Below are positions 1-63,304 of a DNA stretch of 64,000 nucleotides, piece after piece. The translations under genes and the position numbers were made by a program. The notes beneath the pieces are model-generated. The model was given only the letters and a program-made list of their open reading frames with translations. It ran no database searches and was not told where the DNA came from. The stretch is from NCBI GenBank assembly GCA_041645165.1, contig JBAZQN010000008.1, forward strand, positions 2,374-66,373, in the 5' to 3' direction. Origin of the DNA: Patescibacteria group bacterium (GTDB lineage: Bacteria; Patescibacteriota; Patescibacteriia; 2-02-FULL-49-11). Each line of letters opens with the position of its first letter. Position 1 is the stretch's first letter.

Positions 1-896
1 TCTGGACGCTAAAATGGAAGGCGATAAAAGATGTGCGAAAAGGAGATTATCTGACCATTCCCATACCGCAAGGGACTATGAAACGCACCTCAATCACTTT
101 TCCTATAAAAATGAAAGGTGCCAGAAAAGGAACAATCAAAACGTTGAACAAAACGGTTGCACTCACGCCTGAATTTGTCAGGCTCATCGGATACTATTTG
201 GCAGAAGGCTCGGTTGACCGCGGTTTTTACACAAGTTTTTCGTTTAGCATATATGAAACAAACCTTGTACACGACGTCGAATATTGCCTCAAAGAAGTAT
301 TCGGCATTCGTAAAACATACAAGCCGGTTCATAAAACAAACCATGGCATATCAGTAGTTGTTTCGAGCGCAGAAGTGTCGCGCATATTTGCATATTTCGG
401 CAAGGGCGCACAGAATAAGAAACTTCCTTCATGGGCAATCATTCTGCCCCATCGTCTCCAACAGCAGTTGATTACCGCGTATTTCCGCGGAGACGGCAAT
501 TATTATAATAGAAAAAATAAGCATGGACAGAAGGAAATCTGTCGATTCAGCACTATTTCGGAAACGTTGGCATATCAGGTTCGCGATATTTTGCTGCGTC
601 TTGGCATTGTTGCTACAATAAACGCTCGAAAGCGCGCGCATGAGCAAGGGCGGCATACTATGTATACCGTCGGCATAGGAGGTGCATATCTGAAACAGTT
701 TGGGGAAATAGTGGGCTTGCCGCTCAGCTGCTTCATGTACGGTAAAAATCGCGCCAGTCTCTTCGGCAACAATGAGCTCTATGCATTCGTCCCCGTAAAA
801 AATATTAAGAGGAGAATCGTTAGGAAATTTCCTGTTTTTAATTTTAGCGTAAAAAATTTCGAGAGCTATGCTGCAAGCGGCATTGTAGTACATAAT
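1..896 (+). mobile_element. Intein, partial (HINT plus LAGLIDADG endonuclease), inside sufB.
   Basis: Two LAGLIDADG motifs are present. The segment ends ...GIVVHN followed by Cys, then SufB extein sequence resumes. The N-terminal splice junction lies upstream of the window. Confidence 0.7.
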
Positions 897-1604
897 TGCA
901 CCGCGCCAATTTATACCGCCGACTCCCTTCACGCCGCAGTCGTAGAAATCATCGTCAAGCCTCACGCGCGCGTGCGCTACACCACGATACAAAATTGGAG
1001 TAATAATGTGTATAACCTGGTTACCAAGCGGATGCGTGTTGAAGAAAATGCCGTGGGTGAATGGCTCGACTGCAATTTAGGATCAAAGGTTACTATGAAA
1101 TACCCCAGCTGCTTCCTTGTAGGGCCGCATGCCCACGGGGAAATACTCTCGCTCGCAGTCGCGGGAGAGGCGCAGCATCAGGATGCGGGGGGAAAAATGA
1201 TCCATTGTGCGCCTGACACCACCAGCACGATCATATCAAAATCAGTGAGCCAATCTGGCGGCAGAACTTCGTACCGGGGACTGGTGAGGATTAAAAAGGG
1301 CGCATTGCGCGCACGGTCGAAGGTGGTTTGCGACGCGCTAATTGTTGATGAGCGTTCCAGGTCCGATACGTACCCTAATATGGTTATTGATGAACGCGAG
1401 GTAACCGTCGAGCACGAGGCAAGCGTGTCTAAAATAGGTGAAGAGCAATTGTTTTACCTTCAATCGCGCGGTCTTGACAAGACGGCCGCGGAAGCCATGA
1501 TTGTCAACGGCTTTATTGAACCTGTGGTAAAAGAGCTCCCCATGGAGTACGCCGTTGAGATGAATCGCCTTATTGCGCAGCAAATGGACGGGTCTGTAGG
1601 ATAA
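1..1604 (+). CDS. sufB: Fe-S cluster assembly protein SufB, 5'-truncated by the window edge. It carries an intein with a LAGLIDADG homing-endonuclease domain.
   Basis: The reading frame is open from nt 3. Residues downstream of ...VVHN|C match the SufB C-terminal domain (GEAQHQDAGGKMIHCAPDTTSTIISKS, CDALIVDERSRSDTYP, FYLQSRGL, EPVVKELPMEYAVEMNRL). The upstream part has LAGLIDADG-type blocks (LIGYYLAEGSVD, LITAYFRGDGNYY). The intein C-terminal HN lies at nt 891-896, followed by the +1 Cys at 897-899. Confidence 0.8.
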   Translation, partial: WTLKWKAIKDVRKGDYLTIPIPQGTMKRTSITFPIKMKGARKGTIKTLNKTVALTPEFVRLIGYYLAEGSVDRGFYTSFSFSIYETNLVHDVEYCLKEVFGIRKTYKPVHKTNHGISVVVSSAEVSRIFAYFGKGAQNKKLPSWAIILPHRLQQQLITAYFRGDGNYYNRKNKHGQKEICRFSTISETLAYQVRDILLRLGIVATINARKRAHEQGRHTMYTVGIGGAYLKQFGEIVGLPLSCFMYGKNRASLFGNNELYAFVPVKNIKRRIVRKFPVFNFSVKNFESYAASGIVVHNCTAPIYTADSLHAAVVEIIVKPHARVRYTTIQNWSNNVYNLVTKRMRVEENAVGEWLDCNLGSKVTMKYPSCFLVGPHAHGEILSLAVAGEAQHQDAGGKMIHCAPDTTSTIISKSVSQSGGRTSYRGLVRIKKGALRARSKVVCDALIVDERSRSDTYPNMVIDEREVTVEHEASVSKIGEEQLFYLQSRGLDKTAAEAMIVNGFIEPVVKELPMEYAVEMNRLIAQQMDGSVG

Positions 1605-1789: not shown

Positions 1790-2449
1790 ATGGCTACACT
1801 GTTATATTGTTACTGTGATTGTATGAACCAGGCATTAACATATATTCATCTTACAGAAATTCAAGATGAGCTCACTATTACTGTGCCAGCATATAACAGG
1901 GCATATATTCTTATTTATGGCTTTTGCGATGGTATAAAAAAATTAAGAGTAAATGTGGCGCATGAGGGGGCATACGCATGCATCCTAGGCATGATAATTG
2001 GGCTACGCGGCACTTGCGGCATTTCCACTTTCCAGAATCATAGCGCACCGCATACCACCAGCGATCTTTTGGTAAAAACCATATTATTGGATAATGCCGC
2101 GTTTAATTATGAAGGGACAATACGCATTGAAAAAGCTGCACAAGGGTCGAATGCGTATCAAAGAAATGAAAATATAATGATCAGCCCTTCCGCGCGCGTA
2201 ACTACGCGGCCGTATTTGGAAATTTTGGCTAATGACGTGCGTTGCACCCATGGCGCGACGGTCGGCACTTTTGGAGAGGAAGAATATTTTTATCTGGGAT
2301 CAAGGGGTATTGCGCAGAGGCAAGCCACTTTACTTCTGGCGCAAGGATTTCTGCAAAGTATCATACAGAAGATACCCGAAGAGCTTATTACTGATCGCAT
2401 GAAAACGATAATTAAAGAGCAATTAGCCGTCTTTCAGTATGCCCCGTAA
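1790..2449 (+). CDS. sufD: SufD-like protein (SufBD-family C-terminal domain only; short).
   Basis: Shows SufBD C-terminal signature similarity (TRPYLEILANDVRCTHGATVGTFGEEEYFYLGSRGI...QGFL). Only about 219 aa, so the N-terminal half of a canonical SufD appears missing or the start is mis-set. Confidence 0.55.
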   Translation: MATLLYCYCDCMNQALTYIHLTEIQDELTITVPAYNRAYILIYGFCDGIKKLRVNVAHEGAYACILGMIIGLRGTCGISTFQNHSAPHTTSDLLVKTILLDNAAFNYEGTIRIEKAAQGSNAYQRNENIMISPSARVTTRPYLEILANDVRCTHGATVGTFGEEEYFYLGSRGIAQRQATLLLAQGFLQSIIQKIPEELITDRMKTIIKEQLAVFQYAP

Positions 2450-2638: not shown

Positions 2639-3934
2639 GTGGCGTTGGATGTTGATATACGGGGTATGAATAATATACTGAGTGATTTTCCGATATTAAA
2701 ACGCACCGTCCATGGGAAACGGCTCGTGTATCTGGATAATGCCGCGAGCACCCAAAAACCTCACGCCGTTATTGATGCGCTTAGCTTTTTTTACGAACAT
2801 ACAAACGCGAACATCCATCGCGGTATCCACACCTTGGCGGAGGAAGCGACCAGGCAATATGAAAAAACAAGGGATGAGGTGGCGCAGTTTTTTGGCGCTT
2901 CCAGCCGCGATGAAATTATTTTTACCAGAAATACCACGGAAGCGCTCAATCTAATAGCGTTTGCGTATGGGCGCACATTCTTGAAGTCGGGTGACGAGAT
3001 AATTGTGTCTATTGCGGAGCATCATGCCAATTTTGTCCCATGGCAGCAATTAGCGCACGAAACTGGCGCAGTCGTGAAAGTGATTGATATTGATAAGGAA
3101 GGGAGGTTATGCATCCATAGCACGAAGAACAAGGAACAAGGAACAAGGAACAAGAGAGAAGTCGAAATCGGTTGTTTAGAATCGTTAATAACAAATCGTA
3201 CGCGCCTTATCGCGCTTTCGCACGCGTCGAACGTTCTGGGGACGCTCCATGATATTGCGGCCGTGGTGGCGCTTGCAAGGCCTCGCGGCATTATCGTTGC
3301 CGTGGATGGCGCGCAAGCAGCGCCTCATATGGAAATAAACGTTAAAAAGCTGGGTGTGGATTTTTATGCCTGCTCTTCGCATAAAATGCTCGGGCCCTTA
3401 GGTGTCGGCGTATTATATGGGCGGAGGGAAATATTGAAGAAATGCCCGCCGTTCCTTACTGGCGGTAATATGATTAAACGAGTAACTCTTGAAAAAACCG
3501 AATGGAATGATCTGCCGTGGAAATTTGAGGCGGGAACCCCGGATATCGCGGGTGTAGTCGCTTTTGGGGCCGCATTGGAATATATCCGCAAGGTGGGATG
3601 GGGGGTCATTGTCCAACATGAGCAGGAATTAGGCGCATACGCGCTCGCACAACTCACACGGCTGCCCGGTCTTACGCTTTATGGCCCGCATTCAATGGAA
3701 CAGCGGTTTGCAGTATTCTCTTTCAATCTTAAGGATATACATGCGCATGACCTAGCCACCATCCTCGACGAGGAAGGCATAGCGATACGTTCAGGGTCAC
3801 ATTGCGCGCATCCCTTGATGGAACGCTTGGGTACTGGTGCGGTGGCACGGGCTAGTTTTTATATTTATAATACTAAAGAAGACGTTGATGCCCTCATCCT
3901 AGGTCTTAAGAAGGCTCAGCAGTTGTTGGGTTGA
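2639..3934 (+). CDS. sufS: Cysteine desulfurase SufS (class V aminotransferase).
   Basis: Motifs HRGIHTLAEEAT, SSHKMLGPLGVGVLYGRRE (PLP-binding Lys) and RSGSHCAHPL (catalytic Cys loop). Located in the suf operon. Confidence 0.85.
   Translation: MALDVDIRGMNNILSDFPILKRTVHGKRLVYLDNAASTQKPHAVIDALSFFYEHTNANIHRGIHTLAEEATRQYEKTRDEVAQFFGASSRDEIIFTRNTTEALNLIAFAYGRTFLKSGDEIIVSIAEHHANFVPWQQLAHETGAVVKVIDIDKEGRLCIHSTKNKEQGTRNKREVEIGCLESLITNRTRLIALSHASNVLGTLHDIAAVVALARPRGIIVAVDGAQAAPHMEINVKKLGVDFYACSSHKMLGPLGVGVLYGRREILKKCPPFLTGGNMIKRVTLEKTEWNDLPWKFEAGTPDIAGVVAFGAALEYIRKVGWGVIVQHEQELGAYALAQLTRLPGLTLYGPHSMEQRFAVFSFNLKDIHAHDLATILDEEGIAIRSGSHCAHPLMERLGTGAVARASFYIYNTKEDVDALILGLKKAQQLLG
3137..3164. repeat. (GAACAAG)x4 heptanucleotide microsatellite inside the sufS CDS.
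   Basis: Direct reading: gaacaaggaacaaggaacaaggaacaag. Encodes NKEQGTRNKEQ in a surface-loop region absent from typical SufS. Confidence 0.9.
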
Positions 3935-3980
3935 TCATTATTCGTAATTAAATTAATATTTATCAACTTGGACAATAAAT

Positions 3981-4760
3981 ATGACAGAAACTAGCAAATT
4001 TGAAAAACTTGGAAAATTAAGCCATAGCGACAGGCAAACGGCTCATTTTGATGGAGAGAAAGTTCAACATTATGAAGAAGTGTACGATTACCGCTCTAAA
4101 ACCTTTAAATGGATGATTGAAATCATTCTACCTTTGTTAAAAAATACTAAATCCATCCTTGATATAGGTACTGGCACTGGTGATTTGGTGAGAGCTATTA
4201 AGACAGAAGGTACTGTTACCGGTTTAGATATTTCTAATGATATGCTAAAAGTAGCAAAAGAAAAAAATCAAGATGGATGTTTTGTGCAAGGAGATGCTTA
4301 TAAATTACCTTTTAATGATAAAACATATGATGCGGTAACCTATAAATATGCCTTGCACCACCTTGATCAGCCCATCAAGGCTCTTACCGAGGCGTTTAGA
4401 GTATTAAAAGATAATGGCTGCATTATTATTGCTGATGTAGCGTCATTTAAAGAGGAAGTCAATCATTTAATTTTTAACAAATTAAATAGCCTTAGAGAAC
4501 CAGCAAATTATGAATATCGAACCATTAAAACTATTGAACAATTATTAAAAGTAGTTAGCTTTAATAATGTAACGGTTGTGCAAAAAGATTTTGATTTAGT
4601 ATTGGAAGATTGGCTTAATAATTTTTATAATCCTCAAGATACTATCAATCTGGTTTTGAATTCATCAGATTCCTTTAAAAATTCAATAAAATTGAAAGAA
4701 TTAAAAGATGGGAAGCATCAAATTACATTATCCTCTTTTATTATTAATGCAGTAAAATAA
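3981..4760 (+). CDS. Class I SAM-dependent methyltransferase. Low-GC (about 30-33%) insert between sufS and sufU.
   Basis: Motif I LDIGTGTGDL, an acidic motif II and Methyltransf_11-like architecture. AT content is much higher than the flanking suf genes. Confidence 0.65.
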   Translation: MTETSKFEKLGKLSHSDRQTAHFDGEKVQHYEEVYDYRSKTFKWMIEIILPLLKNTKSILDIGTGTGDLVRAIKTEGTVTGLDISNDMLKVAKEKNQDGCFVQGDAYKLPFNDKTYDAVTYKYALHHLDQPIKALTEAFRVLKDNGCIIIADVASFKEEVNHLIFNKLNSLREPANYEYRTIKTIEQLLKVVSFNNVTVVQKDFDLVLEDWLNNFYNPQDTINLVLNSSDSFKNSIKLKELKDGKHQITLSSFIINAVK

Positions 4761-4820: not shown

Positions 4821-5429
4821 ATGGCCTCATTATATCGTGAAGAAATTCTGGACCATTATAAGCATCCTCGCAATTTTGGCGTGCTTGATAATCCAACCGT
4901 GACAGTTGATGAAGACAATAGTACCTGCGGTGATCAAATGAAGATCGCGCTAAAGGTACATAATGGAGTGTTGGCTGGAATCCTCTGGTCAGGCAGCGGC
5001 TGTGCGCTTTCTATGGCGGGGGCTTCAATGCTCTCAGAGTATATTAAGGGTAAAAAAATGTATGATATTGAATCAATCACTGAATCTGATATACTGCAAA
5101 TGATGGGCGGAACCATTACGCAAGGGAGGATTAATTGCGCGCTTCTGTGTTTGAGGACACTTCAGAAAGGATTAAAGGTATTGCGCATAAAGCAATCGCA
5201 AAAATCTTCGCCTGTGGTGGTCAATAAAGAAATGAATATTAGCGAACTTGTTGCGCGATGGCCCGAGACTCGCATGGTCCTTTCTGAGTATAATTTGCAT
5301 TGCGTTGGATGCCATGCCTCATCTTTCGACACTCTCGAGGCAGGCGCGAAAGTGCATGGGATGAGTGAGGATGAAATTAATCAAATGATGGATGATCTTA
5401 ATCTAATTATTTCCGATAAAAAACAATAA
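4821..5429 (+). CDS. sufU: SufU/IscU-type Fe-S scaffold fused to a C-terminal DUF1858-like redox-disulfide domain.
   Basis: N-terminal LYREEILDHYKHPRNFG...CGD...GSGCALSMAGASM is the SufU/NifU signature. The C-terminal ~60 aa carries a CVGC motif typical of the DUF1858 / hybrid-cluster-protein-associated domain. Confidence 0.65.
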   Translation: MASLYREEILDHYKHPRNFGVLDNPTVTVDEDNSTCGDQMKIALKVHNGVLAGILWSGSGCALSMAGASMLSEYIKGKKMYDIESITESDILQMMGGTITQGRINCALLCLRTLQKGLKVLRIKQSQKSSPVVVNKEMNISELVARWPETRMVLSEYNLHCVGCHASSFDTLEAGAKVHGMSEDEINQMMDDLNLIISDKKQ

Positions 5430-5430
5430 T

Positions 5431-5652
5431 ATGTCTCCTATAGGAAAAATTGTGGTGGAGCGCGAACTCTGCATCGGTGCGGCGTCATGCGTCGCCATCG
5501 CGCCAGGGGTATTTGAGCTCGATAAGGATAATATCGCCATCATCAAAGATGCGAAGGGCGGCGATGATACGACTATAATGGCGGCGGCAGAATCCTGTCC
5601 CACAAAGGCAATATTCATTTACGATATTGATGGGAAACAGGTATATCCGTAA
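5431..5652 (+). CDS. Small ferredoxin (single Fe-S cluster, CxxAxxC...CP type).
   Basis: 73 aa with CIGAASC...ESCPTKAI, resembling Pyrococcus/Thermotoga-type ferredoxins. Follows sufU directly with a 1-nt gap. Confidence 0.7.
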   Translation: MSPIGKIVVERELCIGAASCVAIAPGVFELDKDNIAIIKDAKGGDDTTIMAAAESCPTKAIFIYDIDGKQVYP

Positions 5653-26891: not shown

Positions 26892-28301
26892 TTGTCGAAT
26901 CATAACTTATACGATATGAAAAAAAGAAATTTGCGGAAATTTTGGAAATTGGGGAATGCCGACTATGCCACGAAGCATTTTGACGTGAATAAAGATGGCG
27001 AGCTTATCGTGCGCGAGGGTAACTATCAATATAATGTCAAAGATTTGTGCGATCGTTTTGGCACATCATTGGAGCTGTTATTTCCCCACGTGATTGAAGA
27101 GCGTCTTAACGAAACATTTGACGCGTTCCATGCGGCGATGCGAGCGCAGCGCTATCGGGGAAAATTTTTTTTCCATTACCCTATGAAGGCGAACCAAACG
27201 AAAGAATTTATACTTCCCGCTGTTTCAGAAGGCGCCCATCTTGAAACGAGCTCGGCGAATGAGCTCTGGATTGTCAAACGTATGTGGGAACAGGAGCAAT
27301 TTTCCACTAAAATAAAGGTATTGTGCAACGGTCCGAAAACCAATAAATATTTATCTTTGATTGAGGAATTGAAGCTCAAGAATTTGGATATTGTTCCCAT
27401 CGTAGAAAATTATTGGGAGTTTGAATATCTCCGTAGCTACCGCGGCGATATTGGCATCCGATGGGCACCTACCACCCGTATACGCTCACATTGGGACAAG
27501 CCGACCGATCAATTCGGTTTTCCCACTAAGGATTTGATCGGGCTTGGGAAGATAAGAAATCTCAAATTAATGAGTTACCACGCTGCCTCACAGGTAACGA
27601 GCGCACAAGATTTGATTACGCTTGCACGCGAGGCAATGGGGGTATACCTGCGGGTGAAGAAGAATAATCCAATGCTCGATGCGCTGAATATTGGAGGAGG
27701 GTTTGCCGTGCCGTATGAAAAGAAGAAAAAAATATACACTGTACAACAAGTAGCTCCGCGTATCGTACGGACGATTAAGTCTGCCGCAGAGCGCGGTGGG
27801 GTGCCACATCCGGATATCATTGTCGAGTGGGGACGGTATCTTATGGCACCAGCACAAATCACTGTTTATAAAATCATCGCCGAGAAAGAGATAGCCATCA
27901 ACGGTCATTCCAGGGATTCAAAACACTGGTACTTTATTGACGGAAGCATTATGAATGATTTACCGGATACCTGGGGAGTAAACCAGCGTTGGCATGTAAT
28001 TCCGATTAATTATATGGATGCAGTAAAATTATCACGCGTCTGGCTATCCGGATCAAGCTGTGATTCGGACGATAAGTACACCAATGGCGGTGAATGCGTT
28101 CGTTTACCGCGCCTGCAGGATCTGCGAGAAGGTGAGCCATTGTATGTAGCGGTGCTTGATACGGGAGCCTACCAGGATGCACTGGCGAGCCTTCATTGTA
28201 TGCTTTCAAGCCCTGAAAAACTCGTAATCCAAAACGGGGTTATCACTGTTGCGTGCAAACGCGATACGCCAGAAGAAGTGGGGATGAAATTTGGGTGGTA
28301 G
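26892..28301 (+). CDS. Fold-type III PLP-dependent decarboxylase (Orn/DAP/Arg decarboxylase family); arginine decarboxylase suspected from context.
   Basis: HYPMKANQ (PLP-Lys, cf. YAVKAN), NIGGGF and SGSSCDSDD (cf. the CGPTCDSxD substrate loop). Neighbours are agmatine-pathway genes. Confidence 0.6.
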   Translation: MSNHNLYDMKKRNLRKFWKLGNADYATKHFDVNKDGELIVREGNYQYNVKDLCDRFGTSLELLFPHVIEERLNETFDAFHAAMRAQRYRGKFFFHYPMKANQTKEFILPAVSEGAHLETSSANELWIVKRMWEQEQFSTKIKVLCNGPKTNKYLSLIEELKLKNLDIVPIVENYWEFEYLRSYRGDIGIRWAPTTRIRSHWDKPTDQFGFPTKDLIGLGKIRNLKLMSYHAASQVTSAQDLITLAREAMGVYLRVKKNNPMLDALNIGGGFAVPYEKKKKIYTVQQVAPRIVRTIKSAAERGGVPHPDIIVEWGRYLMAPAQITVYKIIAEKEIAINGHSRDSKHWYFIDGSIMNDLPDTWGVNQRWHVIPINYMDAVKLSRVWLSGSSCDSDDKYTNGGECVRLPRLQDLREGEPLYVAVLDTGAYQDALASLHCMLSSPEKLVIQNGVITVACKRDTPEEVGMKFGW

Positions 28302-28357
28302 TGCGCTCGGTTTTCATACCATCATGGCGTGTCATAAAAAAGAACAGTAGAGGAAAT

Positions 28358-29014
28358 TTATGAAGTTATGGACTTAATAACCGAAAAAGCTTGGTCTACA
28401 TCAGTATTCATGAAAAACATGTTTAATTCCCAGCCAATTGATATGACTTCGATGACACCTATTCCATTCCAGGCCAATGCTTTCAGTATTAAATAATACA
28501 CATCTGGTGGAGAAGTAAGGGTCATTTTTGTTGATAGTTTTATGGTGATTGAGGATAGATCTTTTACTTTTACTACATTCTTCTGATTTTTTAAGATTTT
28601 TTCTACATCTTTTTCTAATTCACTGCTTACGATAATAGTCGCTTCAGTAAGCCCTACTGATATATTGAAAAATGTATCTTTTTTATTCTCTGTCTTTTTC
28701 AGAATCTCTTGGTGTATATTGATAACACTCGGAGAATTGAGAAACATAAATTCGACAAGATTTGAGCGTACGGTAATGTTCTTTGAATCCTTCAATACTT
28801 CTACATTGGAAGTTGGCGGCTTTAATTTTCTTTTGATTCGGTGGAGGGCCATAGCTACCGCCTCCTCGGAAATTTCTTCGAGCAGTTTTTTCTCTATTTG
28901 AGGGCGCAGTTGCCTCGCTACTCCGGAAATATTTACCATATCTGCATACAGCACCTCCGACAAAAAGGGCGAACGGTCGATAAGGTCTTGTACAACTTGG
29001 GAAATGGTTGTCAT
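28358..29014 (-). CDS. Hypothetical protein (possible tandem ACT-like regulatory domains).
   Basis: No firm motif. A beta-alpha-beta-beta-alpha-beta pattern is suggested by alternating hydrophobic stretches. Confidence 0.25.
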   Translation of the reverse strand: MTTISQVVQDLIDRSPFLSEVLYADMVNISGVARQLRPQIEKKLLEEISEEAVAMALHRIKRKLKPPTSNVEVLKDSKNITVRSNLVEFMFLNSPSVINIHQEILKKTENKKDTFFNISVGLTEATIIVSSELEKDVEKILKNQKNVVKVKDLSSITIKLSTKMTLTSPPDVYYLILKALAWNGIGVIEVISIGWELNMFFMNTDVDQAFSVIKSITS

Positions 29015-29134
29015 GTTGGAATTATAACAATGTGTGATAATTTTGTCAATATTGTTATAAAATTTGCTTAATATAGTGAATCCTTATAAACTGTGCGTAG
29101 TTCTTTAAAATATGTTTAATTTAAGGAGATTTTC

Positions 29135-29737
29135 ATGGAAGGTTTCAGAGCGATCGTAGGCCCACTAGCGGGCGCGTTAGCAGCATTCGCAATCGCCCGA
29201 TATATATGGGCGATTTTCCAGACGATGAGGCTACCGTCTGGACAGAGAGTCACGCCGAACCGCGTGACGTGGGGAGTAATCTCTGTTATTGGCTGGACCT
29301 TTCTAGCCAATAACGTAGCTATGGGGGCGACCTACACTCTGTGGCTACCCATGGTGTACGCCATGGGACCAACAATAGTCGCTCTGATCTCAATCCGACA
29401 TGGGGTTGGAGGGCGAGATAAGAATGACATCGTTGCCGGAACCATCGCAGTATTAAGCCTTATACTGTGGTGGTGGCTAGGCCTTTCGGCGGGATTCGCC
29501 GCCAACTTGATGGCCGACATTGCGGCGATCTACCCGACCATCAGGAAGGCCTACCGTCAACCCGGAACGGAAGACCGCACAGCATGGGTGTGCACAACCA
29601 TTGGCTGCGTGATCAACCTGATGGCGGTTCCTGCTCCCTGGTCGGGAGTAGGTGCCTACGCTGCCTATCAGGTGGTCGCAAACGGGACCATCGCGGTTCT
29701 CGCGTTGCGACGCAAAAACGTGAAAAATACCAGCTAA
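29135..29737 (+). CDS. Hypothetical polytopic membrane protein; GC-rich (high-50s %) compositional outlier.
   Basis: About 6 hydrophobic helices. GC is clearly above the window average. Confidence 0.4.
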   Translation: MEGFRAIVGPLAGALAAFAIARYIWAIFQTMRLPSGQRVTPNRVTWGVISVIGWTFLANNVAMGATYTLWLPMVYAMGPTIVALISIRHGVGGRDKNDIVAGTIAVLSLILWWWLGLSAGFAANLMADIAAIYPTIRKAYRQPGTEDRTAWVCTTIGCVINLMAVPAPWSGVGAYAAYQVVANGTIAVLALRRKNVKNTS

Positions 29738-29859
29738 GTCTTTTAGACCTCGCTGGTATTACATTTTCAGGTAAGCAATTTTCCCCTAGATTTTGAAATT
29801 GATGAAGATTTTTGTTATACTGAGACTATCATTTGTTTAAACAATAATACAGAGGCCAT

Positions 29860-31119
29860 ATGAGATTAGGCGAATATCCAGCGCAAGATGTGAGAGATAT
29901 TCTTCTGCGTGCTCAGCAGGGGACTGAAGTCGTACTCACCCCTGATTCGAGATCATTAGTAGATTTTCACGCTCTCCTCATAAAAAAATTTAGACCCGGT
30001 GAAGTTGAGCCTCTTGAAGTTTTTCAGGATGAGATGAGCCGCAATCAAAATCAGGATTCAAATGTGCGCTTTATCGGTGTTGTAGCAAGAGATCCTTTAA
30101 ATAACGAGGTAATAAGCGGCGCGTATGGTTCTGTGCAAGACGGTATTTTGGCAATACGTTTTACTTTAACTGAAGGAGACGAGTATCTTGGTACCCCTGC
30201 TACTGAACAAGCGGAAAAACAAGGATACCAAGGCTTCAGTGCATATCGTAGTACTGGAGTAAGTCAGTGGGTGGATGAGCTTCTTGTAGAAGTAGCACGG
30301 GAGCAACAGAAACTAATGAATCCTGAAAAGGATTTAGTTGCGTTGGTGTGTGAAGCGGTACCAAAATCTCAACATTATTGGAATAAGTTAGAAATAGAGC
30401 CGGGTAATGGGATGAGAAGACTGTACAAGCCAGAGTCAGGAGAAGAAGTGCATTATGAATTGCCTCCACTTGCTTGGAATAAAGATGGTACGCCTGCTCA
30501 GGAAGGTATTACTGAGCATCTTCAAATCGCAGTAAAAGGCCACCAAGACAGTGTTCTCGTGTCAGAATTAGAAAAAATTCTGAAAGATTGGTGGAAAGCG
30601 TGGTATATTCGCCCACGAGACCAGTTTGAGAGCAATGAGGCGTGGGAGCTTCACAAAAGAACAGTCTGGAATATTCTTGAAAATAATATTATTGCTCCAA
30701 TACGCGACGCCGGAGAATTAAAATTAATAGCAAATGCAATTACAAGAAGCGAGCTCCCAAAATCAAGGCGTATTAATAGTTTAGATAAAGTTGTAGTTGG
30801 CGAAATTCTCTCAATCTCAAATCACCCGTATGCAAAAAGAATTCGAATTGCTCGAGTTAATGTCGGTGAGGAGACATTGCAAATAATATTTGGCGGACCC
30901 AATATTGGGAAAGTGGGTGACAAGGTGGCTGTGGCCTTGCCGGGAACTATGACTGACCATGGCAAATTAAAACCACAACATTTCCGACAAGAAGCTTCCG
31001 AAGCAATGATATGTTCTGCGGTTGAATTAGGATTTGTTGAAGGGGGTCCTGATGAGATTTTGATTCTTTCACATGATTCAAAGCCTGGTGCGTCCATATC
31101 AAAGCCGGAAAATGGATAA
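29860..31119 (+). CDS. Hypothetical protein with a C-terminal tRNA-binding OB-fold domain (CsaA/Trbp111/EMAPII-like).
   Basis: C-terminal VVVGEILSISNHPYAKRIRIARVNVGEETLQIIFGGPNIGKVGDKVAVALPGT matches the tRNA_bind domain found in MetRS/PheT/CsaA. The N-terminal ~300 aa has no recognisable family. Confidence 0.5.
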   Translation: MRLGEYPAQDVRDILLRAQQGTEVVLTPDSRSLVDFHALLIKKFRPGEVEPLEVFQDEMSRNQNQDSNVRFIGVVARDPLNNEVISGAYGSVQDGILAIRFTLTEGDEYLGTPATEQAEKQGYQGFSAYRSTGVSQWVDELLVEVAREQQKLMNPEKDLVALVCEAVPKSQHYWNKLEIEPGNGMRRLYKPESGEEVHYELPPLAWNKDGTPAQEGITEHLQIAVKGHQDSVLVSELEKILKDWWKAWYIRPRDQFESNEAWELHKRTVWNILENNIIAPIRDAGELKLIANAITRSELPKSRRINSLDKVVVGEILSISNHPYAKRIRIARVNVGEETLQIIFGGPNIGKVGDKVAVALPGTMTDHGKLKPQHFRQEASEAMICSAVELGFVEGGPDEILILSHDSKPGASISKPENG

Positions 31120-31191
31120 GAAACCCTAAAATAATGTTATGTCTATTTCTCTTGACCTTTCACCACCGCAATATTCCGACAGAAGTGGATT

Positions 31192-32337
31192 GTGATCACA
31201 AGCGATTTAATTCTAAACTTATGCTATATGAATAAAGCAAAACTCAATAAACTATCTCATGGGCTCAAACAGTTGATTATCCAGGAATCAGGTGCTGGAA
31301 AAGTCGCTAAAGGCACATTAAGCGATTATATAAAACGAAGCAAAACGCCGGTAGTGGCATTAGCCGAGCGAACCTTAAATCATTGCAACGCAGGCGCCAC
31401 GCTCCAGGCTGCCCAATGGTTGAAGCAACATGTGGAAAATGGAGGCAAAATAGTAGTAACAATTGCAGGCGCACTTAGTTCATTTCAAATCGGCGTTATG
31501 CTCGCGGAGCTTATCCGGAAAGATAAAGTGCATCTTATATCAGCCACCGCCGCCAATCACGAAGAGTCTTATTATCGCTATGTCGCGCATTCGCACTATG
31601 CGTATATTCCTCGTTATACGGAATTAACCCCAGAGCAGGAAGCAGAATTGCGCGATGCGGGATTGCGGCGCATTACCGACACGTTTCTTCCGGAAGACGA
31701 GAGCGTCCGCATCATGGAGCCGCATTTGGTGAAAATGTGGAAAGAAGCGCAGGCGAAGGGCGAGCGTTATTTCCCCCACGAATATTTCCGTCGGTTGTTT
31801 GAGAAAAATCTTATTAAACCCGATACAGGCGCGAACCCTGACGATTGCTGGGCGTATGCGGCGTATAAAAAAAATATTCCCATTGTTATTCCGGGATTCG
31901 AAGATTCCACCATGGGTAATATTTTTGCGAGTTATACTTATGGCGGTAAATACCGTTTGAACAAAGATCCGCTTTTTGACCCCCACATCATCAAGACCGG
32001 CCTTGAATACTTTACCTGGCTCTACGAATGGTACATGGCGACTGCCAAAAAAAGCTCTCTCGCGTTTCTTCAGTTAGGCGGAGGCATTGCGGCTGATTTC
32101 CCCATCTGTGTCGTGCCGTCATTGATACATGACCTTCAGCTGCACGGGAAAGTCCGCCCCTGGGCGGGATTTATTGAAATTGGCTCTTCCCCAATGTCCT
32201 ACGGTTCGTACTCCGGCGCCGGTGGCAAGGAGAAAATCACCTGGGACAAACTTACTCCTGAAAGTTATTATCAGATCATCCAGAGCGACGCCACGGTCGT
32301 CTTCCCCTGGATTGCCGCAGTCTTGCTGGATTTATAG
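31192..32337 (+). CDS. Deoxyhypusine synthase-like (DHS-like) protein.
   Basis: Blocks align by eye to eukaryotic DHS: VVTIAGALSS...ISATAANHEES (cf. VTTAGGVEED), IPIVIPGFEDSTMGNIFASYTY (cf. [22 protein letters not shown]), LGGGIAADF (cf. LGGGVVKHH), GSYSGAGGKEKITWDKL (cf. GSDSGARPDEAVSWGKI). Confidence 0.6.
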   Translation: MITSDLILNLCYMNKAKLNKLSHGLKQLIIQESGAGKVAKGTLSDYIKRSKTPVVALAERTLNHCNAGATLQAAQWLKQHVENGGKIVVTIAGALSSFQIGVMLAELIRKDKVHLISATAANHEESYYRYVAHSHYAYIPRYTELTPEQEAELRDAGLRRITDTFLPEDESVRIMEPHLVKMWKEAQAKGERYFPHEYFRRLFEKNLIKPDTGANPDDCWAYAAYKKNIPIVIPGFEDSTMGNIFASYTYGGKYRLNKDPLFDPHIIKTGLEYFTWLYEWYMATAKKSSLAFLQLGGGIAADFPICVVPSLIHDLQLHGKVRPWAGFIEIGSSPMSYGSYSGAGGKEKITWDKLTPESYYQIIQSDATVVFPWIAAVLLDL

Positions 32338-32422
32338 ACTTTGAATTACCCAAAGTAATGCACTTATTTGTATAAAATACCAATTCGACTCAGCTCACTA
32401 TGACATGAATCGCGAAACGTAA

Positions 32423-32758
32423 ATGACATCAGAAATCGCTTTAAAATTTATTTTCTTTGGCTTAATCGTCCTAGCGGTTGCTCTCGAAGTGACCGGTGAT
32501 ATTTTTTTCAAAAAATGGTCTATTGACAGTAGAAACGTTTTACTTTATTTTGGCCTTTTGATTTATTTTATTGGAACCATTTTTTGGGCGATTTCGCTGA
32601 AATATGAATATTTATCAAAAGCAATCTCTGTATTTACTGTTTTGAATTTAGTTATTGTTGCTCTTGTGGGCGTTCTCTATTTCAAAGAAGATTTGTCTTT
32701 GATAAATAAAATTGGAATCGGGTTAGGAATTTTGAGTGTTGTTCTTATTGAAATTTAA
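32423..32758 (+). CDS. SMR-family (EmrE/MdtI/MdtJ-like) small multidrug/spermidine exporter; low GC.
   Basis: 111 aa with 4 TM helices and a conserved Glu in TM1 (LAVALEVTGDIFFKKW). Confidence 0.6.
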   Translation: MTSEIALKFIFFGLIVLAVALEVTGDIFFKKWSIDSRNVLLYFGLLIYFIGTIFWAISLKYEYLSKAISVFTVLNLVIVALVGVLYFKEDLSLINKIGIGLGILSVVLIEI

Positions 32759-32768
32759 TGTGACAAAC

Positions 32769-33623
32769 ATGAGCAGTCAAAAAATTAAAATAGGCCTTGT
32801 GCAGATGCGCTGCAGTGAAAATAGCGTTAAAAATCTGGCTCATGCGATCGAGGAGATTAAGAAAACAGCGGACAGTGGCGCACAAATAGTATGTTTGCCA
32901 GAATTTTTTTTATCGAAATATTTTTGCCAAGGGCCGAAAGATGATAAAAATTTCAAACTAGCGGAACCGATTCCCGGACCGACCACTGAAGTGCTGGGGA
33001 AGCTCGCGCTTCAATATAAAATAGTCATACTCTGCTCATTGTTTGAACAAGCTGACAGAGGCAAATATTTTAATTCCATTGCGGTTATTGATACGCAAGG
33101 CAAAATCGCTGGTGTTTACCATAAAATGCACATTCCTTCAATCCCGTCGGGGCTTTACTCGGAGGATTATTATTTTCATAAAGGCGATAAAGGAGTCATC
33201 GTAGTTGATACGCCTTACGGTAAAATCGCGCCGTTGATTTGTTACGACCAATGGTTTCCCGAACTTGCGCGCATTGCAGCGGTGAAGGGAGCTCAAATCA
33301 TTTTTTATCCGACTGCCATTGGATGGCCGCACGATAATCCAAAATGGAAAAGACAAGCCGAACATGAAGCCTGGCAGATAATCCAACGCAGCCATGCAAT
33401 TGCCAATAATGTGTTTGTAGCGGCGGTCAATAGAATTGGCGTAGAGGGGGATCTGAAATTTTGGGGAACGTCGTTTGTAAGCGACCCGTATGGAAGAGTG
33501 ATTACTATGGCCGCAACAGACAAAGAAGAAAATGTGGTAGTGGAATGTGACTTAACTTTAATAGACAAAATGAGAAAAGATTGGCCCTTTTTGAAGGAAA
33601 GGAGAATTATGTGTGAAATTTAA
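32769..33623 (+). CDS. aguB: Carbon-nitrogen hydrolase; N-carbamoylputrescine amidase (AguB)-like.
   Basis: IKIGLVQMRCSENSVKNL...GAQIVCLPEFFLSKYFCQ closely resembles AguB N-termini. CN-hydrolase Glu/Lys/Cys (ICYDQWFPE) triad context. Confidence 0.7.
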   Translation: MSSQKIKIGLVQMRCSENSVKNLAHAIEEIKKTADSGAQIVCLPEFFLSKYFCQGPKDDKNFKLAEPIPGPTTEVLGKLALQYKIVILCSLFEQADRGKYFNSIAVIDTQGKIAGVYHKMHIPSIPSGLYSEDYYFHKGDKGVIVVDTPYGKIAPLICYDQWFPELARIAAVKGAQIIFYPTAIGWPHDNPKWKRQAEHEAWQIIQRSHAIANNVFVAAVNRIGVEGDLKFWGTSFVSDPYGRVITMAATDKEENVVVECDLTLIDKMRKDWPFLKERRIMCEI

Positions 33624-33696
33624 TTGTCAAATAAAGGTACATTATTTTCACGATCGTGAAAATAATTGCTCTTGTTAAAAATAACTCAATACCGAT

Positions 33697-34710
33697 ATGA
33701 GATATTTTATGCCGGCGGAATGGGAGCCTCATAAGGGTACGTGGATTGCCTGGCCGCATAACCGCGATCATTGGCCCGGTAAGTTCGATTCCATCCCTGG
33801 AGTTTTCGCTGAAATAATACAAAAACTTACAAAAAGTGAGAAAGTTTTTTTATTGGTGAACGACGATGCAATGGAACAAGAAGCTCGCCGTATATTAAAT
33901 GAAAAGAATACTTTAATGTCGCAGGTTGAATTTGTACAGATTCCCACGAATACCTCTTGGACGCGCGATTACGGTCCAATTTTTATCCGCGATACGCAGG
34001 GTAAATTAAGCGTTATGGATTGGATCTTTACTTCATGGGGAAATAAATATCCGCCGTTCGATCTTGATGATATAGTCCCGAAAAAAATATGTCAGCAATT
34101 CGAATTTTCGCTTATAGAGCCGGGCATAGTACTGGAAGGCGGGTCCATAGACGTAAACGGGAAGGGATCGTTATTGACTACCGAACAATGCCTTTTAAAT
34201 AAAAATCGCAATCCGCAGCTCAACCGCACTCAAATTGAAGTTAATTTAAAAAAATATCTCGGCGCTTCGAATATTTTGTGGCTAAAGCGGGGGATTGCGG
34301 GAGACGATACGGATGGACACATAGATGATTCAGCGCGATTTACAGATCCGTCGACTATTGTATGCGCCGTGGCGGAAAGCACAGATGATCCCGATTATGA
34401 TGTATTGCGGCATAATTATGAAGATTTAAATAAATTTCGTGATCAAGATGGAGAACCTTTTAGAGTAATTCCATTTCCAACCCCTGACCCCGTGATATAT
34501 GAAGGTCAAAGGCTTCCGGCGAGTTACATAAATTTTTACATCGCAAATAAGAGTGTACTTTTACCTACCTTTAGGTGTAAAAAAGATCAAGAAGCGCAGC
34601 GTATACTTCAAGAGCTTTTCTCCACTCGTTCCGTTATTGGTATAGATTGTACTGATCTTATCTGGGGTCTGGGGGCCATACATTGTTCAACGCAGCAGCA
34701 GCCTTTATGA
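33697..34710 (+). CDS. aguA: Agmatine deiminase (AguA; PAD_porph family).
   Basis: MPAEWEPHKGTWIAWPHN N-terminal hallmark and the C-terminal GLGAIHCSTQQQP catalytic Cys motif. Confidence 0.85.
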   Translation: MRYFMPAEWEPHKGTWIAWPHNRDHWPGKFDSIPGVFAEIIQKLTKSEKVFLLVNDDAMEQEARRILNEKNTLMSQVEFVQIPTNTSWTRDYGPIFIRDTQGKLSVMDWIFTSWGNKYPPFDLDDIVPKKICQQFEFSLIEPGIVLEGGSIDVNGKGSLLTTEQCLLNKNRNPQLNRTQIEVNLKKYLGASNILWLKRGIAGDDTDGHIDDSARFTDPSTIVCAVAESTDDPDYDVLRHNYEDLNKFRDQDGEPFRVIPFPTPDPVIYEGQRLPASYINFYIANKSVLLPTFRCKKDQEAQRILQELFSTRSVIGIDCTDLIWGLGAIHCSTQQQPL

Positions 34711-41047: not shown

Positions 41048-41139
41048 GAGGGGATGGGGAGGTCTCCTTTGGAAAAAGGTGAACTCTAGGTACTTTTTTG
41101 ACTTTTTTAGAGATTTTGATACAATGCGTAAGGATTTCT

Positions 41140-42858
41140 ATGACTAATAAACAAAGGCTTTGGATGTATGTAGGGCTCATCATAGCGCTCTTTTTAATTG
41201 CACTTATTTTTGCCGCGCCTAAACTCCCCACTGCGGTTCCCGCGGCTTCTTTTTTTGCTAAATTTCCTTATAAATTAGGCTTGGATCTCAAGGGAGGCGC
41301 CCACCTTATTTACCAAGCAGACACCTCGCAAGTGCCCTTTGCAGACAAACAATCCGCAATCAACGGCGTCCGCGATGTAATCGAACGGCGGGTCAATGCG
41401 TTCGGCATTTCAGAACCTCTGGTGCAAACTAACCAATCAGGCGATGAATACCGCGTCATTGTGGAGCTTGCAGGCGTATTTAATGTTGATGAGGCGATAA
41501 AACTTATCGGAGAAACTCCGTTGCTTGAATTTAAAACGCAAAACCCCGTAGCGGATGCACCGCTTACTGAAGAACAAAAGCAACAGCTTATAAAAGATAA
41601 TGAAACAGTCCTGAAGAGCGCTCAAGAAGTACTCGTGCAATCACATGCACCCAATGCTGATTTTAGCGCATTGGCAAAACAATATTCAGAAGACCCTGGA
41701 TCCAAAGAGCAGGGAGGGGATTTAGGATGGGCAAAAAAGGGAGTATTTGTGCCTGAATTCGATAAGGCGATTTTTGAAACCCTTAAAGCAGGGGAAACCA
41801 CCAAAGAATTAGTGCAAACCCAATTCGGCTACCATATTATCAAAAAGATTGAAGAGCGCGAGGTGGAAGGCGCGGCGAAAGGTGAACCGGAAAAGGAAGT
41901 CCATGCCGCGCATATACTCCTCCGCACCATCGCTGAACAAGATATCTCATCTCAAGTTGACCCGTGGGTTAATACCGCGCTCTCGGGAAAACAACTTAAG
42001 CGCGCCAGTGTTCAATTCAACTCACAAACAGGGGAACCGAATGTCAATCTGGAATTCAATGATGAGGGATCGAAACTTTTTGCGGAGCTCACCGGCGCCA
42101 ACATCGGCAAACCTATTGCTATATTTCTTGACGGGCAGGCAATTTCAGTGCCTACGGTTCAGGAAAAAATTGAAGGCGGCAGCGCAGTCATCACCGGGAG
42201 GTTTAATATAAAAGAAGCCCGCACGCTCGCAGAACGCCTCAATGCGGGCGCGCTGCCCGTCCCCATTCATTTGATTGCGCAAACCACCGTAGGCCCCACC
42301 CTCGGTTCTTTGTCTTTAAACCAGAGCCTGCGCGCAGGTATGATAGGAATACTTATCGTAATGTTATTCATGATATTGTACTATCGTTTACCCGGCATCA
42401 TCGCTTCGTTCGCGTTATTGCTCTATGCGAGCATCGTACTTGTTCTTTTTAAACTCATACCCGTGACACTCACGCTCGCAGGCATAGCCGGCTTTATCCT
42501 TTCAGTGGGCATGGCAGTTGACGCGAATATCCTTATTTTTGAGCGTCTCAAAGAAGAGCTAAAAGCGGGAAGGGACCTGCCCACGGCCGTTGAAGAAGGC
42601 TTTAAACGCGCGTGGACCTCCATCCGAGATTCGAATTTTTCGTCTCTCATCACCTGTGCGGTCCTTATGTGGTTTGGCAGCTCTGTCATCAAAGGTTTTG
42701 CAGTTACCCTGATCATCGGTATTCTTTCATCCATGTTTACCGCCATTACCGTAAGCAGAACCATTTTAAAGGCAATCGCCTTAACCGGAGCGAAGAGGCA
42801 TTTATGGATGTTTGGTTACCACCGCATTGAGACTAAGAGTGGCGATATGAAAATGTAA
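41140..42858 (+). CDS. secD: Protein-export membrane protein SecD with an embedded PpiC/parvulin-type PPIase domain.
   Basis: SecD blocks (LGLDLKGGAHLIYQAD; ...GKPIAIFLDGQAISVPTVQEKIEGGSAVITG; 6 C-terminal TM). The inserted ~90 aa carry ...FSALAKQYSEDPGSKEQGGDLGWAKKGVFVPEFDKAIFETLKAGE...FGYHIIKKIE, the parvulin signature. Confidence 0.75.
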   Translation: MTNKQRLWMYVGLIIALFLIALIFAAPKLPTAVPAASFFAKFPYKLGLDLKGGAHLIYQADTSQVPFADKQSAINGVRDVIERRVNAFGISEPLVQTNQSGDEYRVIVELAGVFNVDEAIKLIGETPLLEFKTQNPVADAPLTEEQKQQLIKDNETVLKSAQEVLVQSHAPNADFSALAKQYSEDPGSKEQGGDLGWAKKGVFVPEFDKAIFETLKAGETTKELVQTQFGYHIIKKIEEREVEGAAKGEPEKEVHAAHILLRTIAEQDISSQVDPWVNTALSGKQLKRASVQFNSQTGEPNVNLEFNDEGSKLFAELTGANIGKPIAIFLDGQAISVPTVQEKIEGGSAVITGRFNIKEARTLAERLNAGALPVPIHLIAQTTVGPTLGSLSLNQSLRAGMIGILIVMLFMILYYRLPGIIASFALLLYASIVLVLFKLIPVTLTLAGIAGFILSVGMAVDANILIFERLKEELKAGRDLPTAVEEGFKRAWTSIRDSNFSSLITCAVLMWFGSSVIKGFAVTLIIGILSSMFTAITVSRTILKAIALTGAKRHLWMFGYHRIETKSGDMKM

Positions 42859-62612: not shown

Positions 62613-63304
62613 GGGTTAAAATAGGGGTGAATTTTAATGGTCACAAGAGTTGTCTTGGCGATTATTACGTACCTCTTGCCGTTTTTCTTGATGTCGGATT
62701 TTTGAAAACATTGCCCAGGCGTCATATACGTAATGGTGCGGCGGAAATCATTAAGATGGGGGTGATAAAGGATAAGGAGCTTTTTGAATTGCTCGAATCG
62801 CATGGAGAGGAACTTCAGCACAATAGATTTCAGAACAGCGCAATCGCTCGCCACGTCATACGACGTGCCATACAGGGAATACTTGAGGAATTGGAGCCGA
62901 ATCTCCAGGAAGAACGATTGGAACGCCTCGTTGATTTTGGGCATACCTTCAGTCCTCAAATTGAAATGCAAGCATTGCCTGCGCTTCTTCACGGTGAAGC
63001 GGTGGCGATCGATATGGCATTATCCACATGTATCGCGTATGAGCGAAATTTACTTTCTGAGAGCGAGAGAGACCGCATCATACGGCTGATACGTTTGTTC
63101 GGTCTGCCGGTGTTCCACCGCGTATGTACGTCTGCACTGCTCTCGCGCGCGTTACAGAAATCAACGCAGCACCGCGACGGACTGCAACGTTGTCCTCTTC
63201 CGATCCGTATAGGTATGACAACGTTTGTTAATGACATCACGGACGAGGAATTAAAAAATGCATTGAGAATATTAAAAAAGTATGCAAGATCAAGCGATAC
63301 GTGA
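62594..63304 (+). CDS. C-terminal part of the DHQS-like sugar-phosphate cyclase (continuation of the previous CDS in the +1 frame).
   Basis: VDAGVGVKIGVN (cf. VDSSVGGKTGIN), ...GAAEIIKMGVI... and HGEAVAIDMAL (metal-binding His block). Confidence 0.6.
   Translation: MVDAGVGVKIGVNFNGHKSCLGDYYVPLAVFLDVGFLKTLPRRHIRNGAAEIIKMGVIKDKELFELLESHGEELQHNRFQNSAIARHVIRRAIQGILEELEPNLQEERLERLVDFGHTFSPQIEMQALPALLHGEAVAIDMALSTCIAYERNLLSESERDRIIRLIRLFGLPVFHRVCTSALLSRALQKSTQHRDGLQRCPLPIRIGMTTFVNDITDEELKNALRILKKYARSSDT

Follow-up and report, generated by a model that had tools for sequence, protein, structure and literature searches.

The DNA analysed here (the window) is a 64,000-nt stretch of contig JBAZQN010000008.1 from a Patescibacteria group bacterium (assembly GCA_041645165.1, positions 2,374 to 66,373, forward strand). 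It opens inside an intein that interrupts sufB, the gene for the scaffold protein of the SUF iron–sulfur (Fe-S) cluster assembly system. From its sequence and predicted fold, we consider it very likely that a canonical (class 1) intein, housing a two-motif LAGLIDADG endonuclease that is probably active, has been placed in frame in the sufB gene of an Uhrbacteria-like member of the Patescibacteria. The host group is new and the lineage distinct, whereas the kind of element is already known.

Frame 3 of the plus strand is open from base 3 through a stop codon at 1602-1604 and encodes the 3' part of sufB. In the 533-aa translation of this fragment, Pfam models matched LAGLIDADG_3 in two stretches (1e-17) and SUFBD_core at residues 294-504 (3.3e-73); an Intein_splicing match was below threshold. 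The insertion terminates in ...GIVVHN, with the His codon at 891-893 and the Asn codon at 894-896, followed by Cys+1 (TGC, 897-899) and by CTAPIYTADSLH..., which is conserved SufB sequence. The initial annotation had described this order of VVHN, Cys+1 and resumed SufB sequence, and it is seen at 891-899.

A protein search recovered the complete precursor as a 100% identical protein of 846 aa (P0001, MFA4873022.1), and a public contig of 73,362 bp (L001) was 100% identical to the window, base 1 of which is base 2388 of L001. The precursor consists of an N-extein of 230 aa, an intein of 381 aa and a C-extein of 235 aa; the N-extein and the N-terminal 83 residues of the intein were recovered from L001. 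The N-extein ends in ...FVHYVEG, and the intein starts directly after it with CFAAGTK, the first residue being Cys1. Block B reads T64-E-N-H67 (Thr-x-x-His). A second, independent assembly (a Logan contig from SRR8449827) was identical to the ENA k141 contig over 3,401 bp, both junctions included. The features of the element are as follows.

L001 2015-2140, outside the window: upstream 126 nt of a 195-nt divergent tract (see below)
L001 2141-2389, upstream of the window: intein residues 1-83, including Cys1 and block B (T64/H67)
3-896, plus strand: intein residues 84-381 of 381, comprising the end of the N-terminal HINT (Hedgehog/intein) lobe, the endonuclease domain and the C-terminal HINT lobe
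141-758, plus strand: LAGLIDADG homing-endonuclease domain, about intein residues 130-335 (approximate bounds)
183-212, plus strand: LAGLIDADG motif 1, LIGYYLAEGS, with the catalytic acid Glu151 (intein numbering)
468-500, plus strand: LAGLIDADG motif 2, LITAYFRGDGN, with the catalytic acid Asp247
831-896, plus strand: splicing blocks F and G, PVFNFSVKNFESYAASGIVVHN, with Phe369 at 858-860 and His380-Asn381 at 891-896
897-899, plus strand: Cys+1 codon TGC, first C-extein residue and splicing nucleophile, aligned with E. coli SufB Cys254
897-965, plus strand: downstream 69 nt of the 195-nt divergent tract, defined against an intein-less sister allele (L123)
897-1604, plus strand: SufB C-extein (235 aa) and stop codon, covered by the SUFBD_core match (3.3e-73) and by the alignment of the spliced protein to 5AWF_A

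The frame, the two motifs and the recovered N-terminal part thus bear out the proposal of the initial annotation that sufB harbours an intein with a two-motif LAGLIDADG homing endonuclease. HINT N-terminal blocks (Cys1, Thr64-x-x-His67) are present in the upstream extension, which sets the element apart from an independent open reading frame (ORF). A free-standing endonuclease ORF was ruled out, as the frame is continuous from N-extein through intein to C-extein and needs no internal start or stop signal. An antisense ORF opposite the intein (429-992, 187 aa, TTG start) had no Pfam match and was treated as a chance ORF.

Host protein, catalytic residues and predicted fold

The spliced SufB would comprise 465 aa. 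It contains SufBD_N and SUFBD_core domains and aligns end to end with E. coli SufB (5AWF_A, 2.1e-109), and the positions aligned with E. coli R226, N228, C254, C405 and H433/E434 are conserved. Only a single position in the exteins is off the 90% consensus. The intein sits in frame at an invariant SufB position, between Gly230 and a conserved Cys, and its removal restores a contiguous SufB. This Cys, the Cys+1 of the intein, is aligned with Cys254 of E. coli SufB, the residue at which the scaffold first accepts persulfide (PMC13228346). At NCBI, MFA4873022.1 is labelled 'SufD family Fe-S cluster assembly protein' and the intein is unmentioned; the gene would in fact yield two proteins, a SufB of 465 aa and a free endonuclease.

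No residue required for splicing or DNA cleavage is missing. Across 109 aligned full-length homologues, Cys1, Thr64, His67, Glu151-Gly152, Asp247-Gly248, Asn363, Glu370, His380, Asn381 and Cys+1 were invariant; the acidic residues of the endonuclease, whose integrity the initial annotation had marked for checking, are intact. Mean identity of these homologues to P0001 was 58% in the N-extein, 44% in the intein and 65% in the C-extein. The splicing and LAGLIDADG core was also conserved across all three intein lineages that occupy this site (see below), with E151 and G152 invariant and D247 conserved in at least 90%.

The full 381-aa intein scored above the Pfam gathering thresholds for Intein_splicing (38.4 bits, cut-off 35.8), Hint_2 (38.6 bits, cut-off 28.4) and LAGLIDADG_3 (7.6e-19). 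An AlphaFold2 model based on a 62-row alignment had a predicted local distance difference test score (pLDDT) of 96.3 and a predicted template modelling (TM) score of 0.94, with pLDDT >90 in the endonuclease domain. The helices of the two LAGLIDADG motifs span residues 139-151 and 233-247 of the model, and the secondary structure of residues 139-320 corresponds to the pseudo-dimeric alpha-beta-beta-alpha-beta-beta-alpha fold of LAGLIDADG enzymes. In a Foldseek search of the PDB the best match of the model was the TliVMA intein (7QSU, E 2.5e-21, TM 0.68/0.71), and PI-SceI, PI-PkoII and PI-PfuI were among the further top matches. The free-standing enzymes I-DmoI and I-Tsp061I matched the endonuclease domain only (TM 0.66-0.72, normalised to target length). 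The two Pfam matches (Hint_2 and Intein_splicing) and the similarity of the model to solved inteins both point to a HINT fold.

The same solved inteins served as a comparison for the endonuclease. TliVMA (7QSU/7QSS), PI-SceI (1VDE), PI-PkoII (2CW7) and PI-PfuI (1DQ3) combine HINT with the pseudo-dimeric LAGLIDADG fold, as predicted here, at TM scores of 0.5-0.7. In a phmmer search of PDB sequences both motifs aligned with those of PI-PkoII 2CW7 and TliVMA 7QSU, so that the motif helices correspond and the acidic residues are in register. The sequence identity of these homing endonucleases to the window intein was 10-17%, and their hosts (V-ATPase, DNA polymerase and ribonucleotide reductase) differ from SufB. 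Among them, PI-SceI has an extra region for DNA recognition and PI-PfuI a stirrup domain.

Based on established intein chemistry, splicing would start with the attack of Cys1 on the Gly230-Cys1 bond, an N-S acyl shift aided by Thr64 and His67 of block B. Trans-thioesterification would then pass the N-extein to Cys+1, and cyclisation of Asn381, aided by His380, would free the intein. A final S-N shift would yield the mature 465-aa SufB (...HYVEG-CTAPIY...). Only this spliced form would be able to join SufC and SufD and to take sulfur from SufS/SufU. For M. tuberculosis, unspliced SufB cannot bind SufC or SufD, according to the summary of Huet et al. 2006 in PMC8529194. The freed intein would act as a site-specific endonuclease on intein-less sufB alleles, cutting across the junction sequence with metal ions bound by Glu151 and Asp247.

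A few features of the protein weigh against this account. Next to the invariant Glu370 in block F there is a Phe (Phe369) where 100 of the 109 homologues have Asp, and Cys263 stands where 101 of the 109 have Phe; splicing might conceivably be slower or altered in rate as a result of these two residues. The Asp of block F (the V-Y-D-L type) is replaced by Asn363, as it is in all 109 homologues and in the mycobacterial lineage. An Asp at this position is common among inteins and not universal, so the Asn does not exclude membership. Both splicing and DNA cleavage are deduced from sequence and predicted fold. The unusual Phe369 and Cys263 are also the sole support for the view that splicing has been lost and sufB is a decaying pseudogene, which we regard as very improbable: the ORF runs through 846 codons without a break, no catalytic residue is lacking, and the exteins outside the divergent tract share 94% protein identity with a sister that looks functional, with the single off-consensus position noted above. 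Moreover, no second sufB was found among the Pfam-scanned ORFs of the window.

Intein-less sister alleles and the tract around the insertion point

When the spliced SufB was used as a query, the best 120 matches were all intein-less proteins of 459-491 aa. The best match, from Candidatus Uhrbacteria bacterium RIFCSPLOWO2_02_FULL_49_11 (OGL87885.1, 465 aa, locus L123), was 94% identical and gap-free, and a second syntenic locus (L125) was 84% identical. The initial annotation had suspected a reduced-genome bacterium, and this reading of the host agrees with both the origin of the sequence in a Patescibacteria metagenome-assembled genome (MFA4873022.1) and the position of Candidatus Uhrbacteria as the closest syntenic relative. 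Compared with L123, the interrupted gene carries the intein as an exact insertion of 1,143 bp, and the empty site of L123 reads ...GTGCACTATGTGGAAGGC/TGTACTGCGCCAATTTATTC..., where the slash, here and below, marks a splice junction or the corresponding insertion point.

The divergence between the spliced gene and L123 was concentrated around this point. Nucleotide identity was 71.8% in a site-spanning tract of 195 nt (126 nt upstream and 69 nt downstream of the insertion point) versus 90.1% elsewhere, and mismatches at third codon positions amounted to 63% in the tract versus 25% (Fisher p 1e-10; none of 300 codon shuffles was as extreme). The region of the tract was not fast-evolving in the comparison of L123 with L125. 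Such a tract would be expected to result from homing in which flanking extein DNA is co-converted: recombinational repair would copy the intein plus some of the adjacent extein into the recipient allele and leave the lineage different from its intein-less sister. Together with the empty site in the 94% identical sister and the sporadic distribution of the intein, which is missing from all 120 SufB matches above and has its closest relatives in SufBs with a mean extein identity of only 58-65%, the site-centred tract indirectly supports mobility.

Several observations count against this history of the tract. With L125 as an outgroup, 28 changes in the tract were unique to the window allele versus 16 unique to L123 (p = 0.096), which leans weakly towards a gain here over a replacement in the sister. 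Among 100 loci, no intein-bearing allele was more than 77% identical in the tract. The nearest relative of the intein itself was about 46% identical among the genome loci listed and about 50% among database homologues. Since no sampled allele is close to the tract and the intein relatives are distant, the donor would be unsampled or the event old.

The lack of a donor close to the window copy would also be accounted for if the intein splices but carries an inactive endonuclease, being a fixed, vertically inherited passenger with a divergent tract of some other cause. Mini-inteins at the same site (see below) show that endonuclease loss occurs in this family, and the G+C content of the intein (43.7%) is close to that of the window (44.5%), so there is no sign of a very recent import. 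We nevertheless judge this explanation unlikely, because the catalytic acids and their flanking glycines are intact and invariant in the 109 homologues, the endonuclease domain is modelled with high confidence, the 94% identical sister carries an empty site, and the excess of synonymous divergence is centred on the insertion point.

We also considered an assembly chimera, in which a foreign intein-bearing sufB fragment was joined into an Uhrbacteria-like contig. The tract is as distant from the sister allele as it is from alleles of other phyla, as a chimera could predict. However, the two different assemblies agree fully along 3.4 kb that include both junctions, the frame is kept exactly, and beyond the tract the nucleotide identity of either extein with the sister is back at about 90%, such that two precise crossovers would be required; a chimera is thus extremely unlikely. 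Homing with co-conversion remains our preferred explanation of the tract. The combination of a 94% identical, syntenic, intein-less sister with a sharply bounded, foreign-looking tract would make this locus a clean natural example of that process in the Candidate Phyla Radiation (CPR).

A viral vector was rejected as a candidate: relatives of the intein in IMG/VR were distant (23-31% identity) and resided mostly in other host genes. One IMG/VR entry (L134, IMGVR_UViG_3300020057_000035, 111,848 bp, match at 3001-4077) encodes a SufB in which an intein of 359 aa occupies the same site, with junctions HYLEG/CLIAGE...GFVVHN/CSSPVY. Either a cellular contig was misfiled here or the sufB is carried by a virus.

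Intein lineages at the SufB site

The distribution of inteins at this site was surveyed by scanning one genome per GTDB species with a degenerate DNA pattern for ...HN/CTAPxY...LHxAVVE, which yielded at least 120 loci. The bacterial loci listed came from Mycobacterium (M. gastri, M. ostraviense and M. asiaticum), other Actinomycetota, Chloroflexota, Cyanobacteria, Planctomycetota, Armatimonadota, Omnitrophota, Gammaproteobacteria and Patescibacteria; the archaeal loci listed came from Thermoplasmata, Micrarchaeota, Woesearchaeota, Aenigmatarchaeota, Nanoarchaeia and Marsarchaeota. All 101 readable junctions among the loci listed had the form ...[VIL]EG/C...HN/CTAP. The 98 full-length inteins among them clustered into three lineages that were 24-33% identical to each other.

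Largest lineage: 61 among the loci listed, 355-365 aa, including all mycobacterial copies
Lineage of the window intein: 30 among the loci listed, 367-401 aa, in Saccharibacteria, other Patescibacteria, DPANN archaea, Chloroflexota and Omnitrophota
Smallest lineage: seven among the loci listed, 366-374 aa, mainly in Actinomycetota

The wider family comprised 8,820 representative relatives at E <=1e-3, many of them in multi-intein proteins. The initial annotation had held a SufB intein in such a host to be worth recording. Its occurrence in Patescibacteria stands, but is less unusual than was assumed: public collections already contain, unremarked, over 100 clusters of SufB proteins with inteins, from Patescibacteria, DPANN archaea and other phyla. 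No paper discussing SufB inteins in Patescibacteria or the CPR was found in the literature searched, and a search for Fe-S systems in the CPR returned nothing usable.

The closest counterparts are unpublished SufB inteins of the same lineage in Saccharibacteria (L012, L037, L107 and L112), Aenigmatarchaeota (L064) and Omnitrophota (L057), as well as in Woesearchaeota, Micrarchaeota and Chloroflexota. They share the site, the cluster, a length of 367-401 aa and the invariant residues including Asn363 and Glu370; the best genome locus listed was about 46% identical in the intein, and Phe369 was unique to the window copy.

A well-studied counterpart is the intein of M. tuberculosis SufB (Pps1), which occupies the same insertion point in the same host protein (...YVEG/C...HN/CTAPIY). 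That precursor has an N-extein of 252 aa, an intein of 359 aa and a C-extein of 235 aa (PMC8891592), the C-extein being equal in length to that of the window SufB. Cys1, Cys+1, the block B His, the terminal His-Asn and the N-extein His-5 are common to the mycobacterial and window inteins, both of which are full-length inteins that include a LAGLIDADG endonuclease. In M. gastri, M. ostraviense and M. asiaticum the junctions are identical to the window site. Homology to the inteins of M. gastri and M. ostraviense extends along the entire length (BLAST E ~1e-36), at an identity to the window intein of only 30-32%, and the mycobacterial and window inteins fell into separate clusters with a mean identity of 26%, that is, into different lineages. 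Their ends differ as well (CF[TA][KA]G...G[VI][AV]VHN in the window lineage versus CLPAGE...GFAVHN in the mycobacterial one), and the window intein, at 381 aa, is about 20 residues longer than the 359-aa inteins of M. gastri, M. ostraviense and M. asiaticum. The hosts are a Patescibacteria genome and an actinobacterium, respectively. The M. leprae SufB intein is inserted at a different site, named SufB-b (PMC5050341).

A proposal made for M. tuberculosis SufB suggests a further explanation, compatible with a homing intein, that adds a benefit for the host: the intein would be kept as a post-translational switch, in which a disulfide between Cys1 and Cys+1, or their nitrosylation, arising when oxidative or nitrosative stress acts on the cell, gates the maturation of SufB and hence Fe-S assembly according to redox state. 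The Cys1/Cys+1 pair, the insertion site and the N-extein His-5 are the same as in M. tuberculosis SufB, and the Cys that accepts sulfur is Cys+1 itself. Redox inhibition of M. tuberculosis SufB splicing, as PMC8529194 summarises it from Topilina et al. 2015, would also favour such a switch. However, the closest relatives lack the intein, which is therefore not needed for SufB regulation in this clade, and the conserved endonuclease residues are those expected of a selfish mobile element and not of a domesticated switch. Overall, we find retention as a switch rather doubtful.

Additional variants were observed at the site. Mini-inteins of 147-189 aa without an endonuclease domain occupied exactly the same SufB site in one Solirubrobacterales and three Micrarchaeota genomes (L003, L024, L077 and L094); their N-terminal ~100 residues were 33-43% identical to the window intein. 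Open SufB stretches of 1,170-1,650 codons from stop to stop were found at ten loci (L016, L039, L058, L061, L066, L071, L099, L100, L106 and L109), which include one from Patescibacteria (L058) and others from Mycobacterium spp.; their length suggests two or more inteins per SufB, or upstream in-frame read-through. A 'partial' SufB from Gaiellaceae (P0087, 462 aa) starts with a C-extein fragment (EGCTAPVY...), continues with mid-SufB sequence and then has a second EGCTAPIY, which looks like a duplication or an assembly artefact.

Taken furthest, and only tentatively, the codon boundary before the persulfide-acceptor Cys of SufB might be a cross-domain intein hotspot held by at least three old lineages. 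The lineage of the window intein would be undergoing exchange among habitat-sharing ultra-small Patescibacteria, DPANN archaea and Chloroflexota, and the window would preserve the trace of a homing event, co-conversion tract included, in an organism that relies on splicing for its Fe-S supply. By analogy with the mycobacterial proposal, a stronger version is possible in which the Cys1/Cys+1 pair also redox-gates SufB maturation in these oxygen-sensitive symbionts.

The suf operon, its surroundings and its probable dependence on splicing

The gene order Rrf2, sufC, sufB, short sufD, sufS, sufU-like, ferredoxin and then pilus genes is common to the window, L123 and L125. Pfam matches identified the following genes downstream of sufB; the genes for the Rrf2 regulator and SufC precede the window, on L001.

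1790-2449, plus strand: short sufD
2639-3934, plus strand: sufS
3981-4760, plus strand: inserted methyltransferase gene
4821-5429, plus strand: sufU-like gene (NifU_N+DUF1858)
5431-5652, plus strand: small ferredoxin

The methyltransferase is a 259-aa class I S-adenosylmethionine-dependent enzyme (Methyltransf_11/UbiE-like) encoded between sufS and the sufU-like gene and absent from L123 and L125. The surrounding 2 kb have the lowest G+C content of the window (37%), and this looks like a gene insertion into the suf operon. The spacer between sufB and sufD (1605-1789) is 186 nt here versus 14 nt in L123, and that between sufD and sufS (2450-2638) is likewise longer than in L123. The 186-nt spacer folded no better than shuffled sequences (z = -0.07), contained no convincing promoter or terminator and was not repeated elsewhere in the window. 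A search of the whole window with Rfam at gathering thresholds and with ARAGORN yielded no RNA elements.

SufD has 219 aa and matches only the C-terminal SUFBD core (profile positions 94-232). Both relatives have the same short form (217 and 207 aa in L123 and L125, respectively), and thus it is a clade feature and not a truncation. The NifU_N domain of the SufU-like protein is fused to a C-terminal DUF1858, and this fusion is kept in L123 and L125. The initial annotation took SUF to be the only Fe-S assembly route present, a claim too broad for a contig of 73 kb; no ISC or NIF genes were detected among the scanned ORFs of the window, and neither phmmer nor a profile of 102 SufB inteins found other inteins among all its six-frame ORFs.

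Three loci further along the window stood out. A gene for 3-dehydroquinate synthase is split into overlapping ORFs on the plus strand: the first (61068-62612) encodes an N-terminal ROK-family domain and the start of DHQ_synthase, and the second (62594-63304) the remainder of DHQ_synthase plus DHQS_C. A frameshift, a sequencing error or an unusual fusion could account for this arrangement. A SecD homologue (41098-42858, plus strand) contains a PPIC-type peptidyl-prolyl isomerase domain between the first domain of SecD and the P1 head. A polyamine-type cluster (26892-34710, plus strand) encodes an Orn/Arg decarboxylase, a deoxyhypusine-synthase-like protein, a carbon-nitrogen hydrolase and an agmatine deiminase (PAD_porph).

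Nothing here alters existing knowledge of how inteins work. Three distinct intein lineages use the 'mycobacterial' SufB site, in hosts from many bacterial and archaeal phyla. For the organism, the SUF scaffold encoded on this contig would be made only after protein splicing, and the nucleophile of that splicing would be the very cysteine that later accepts sulfur.

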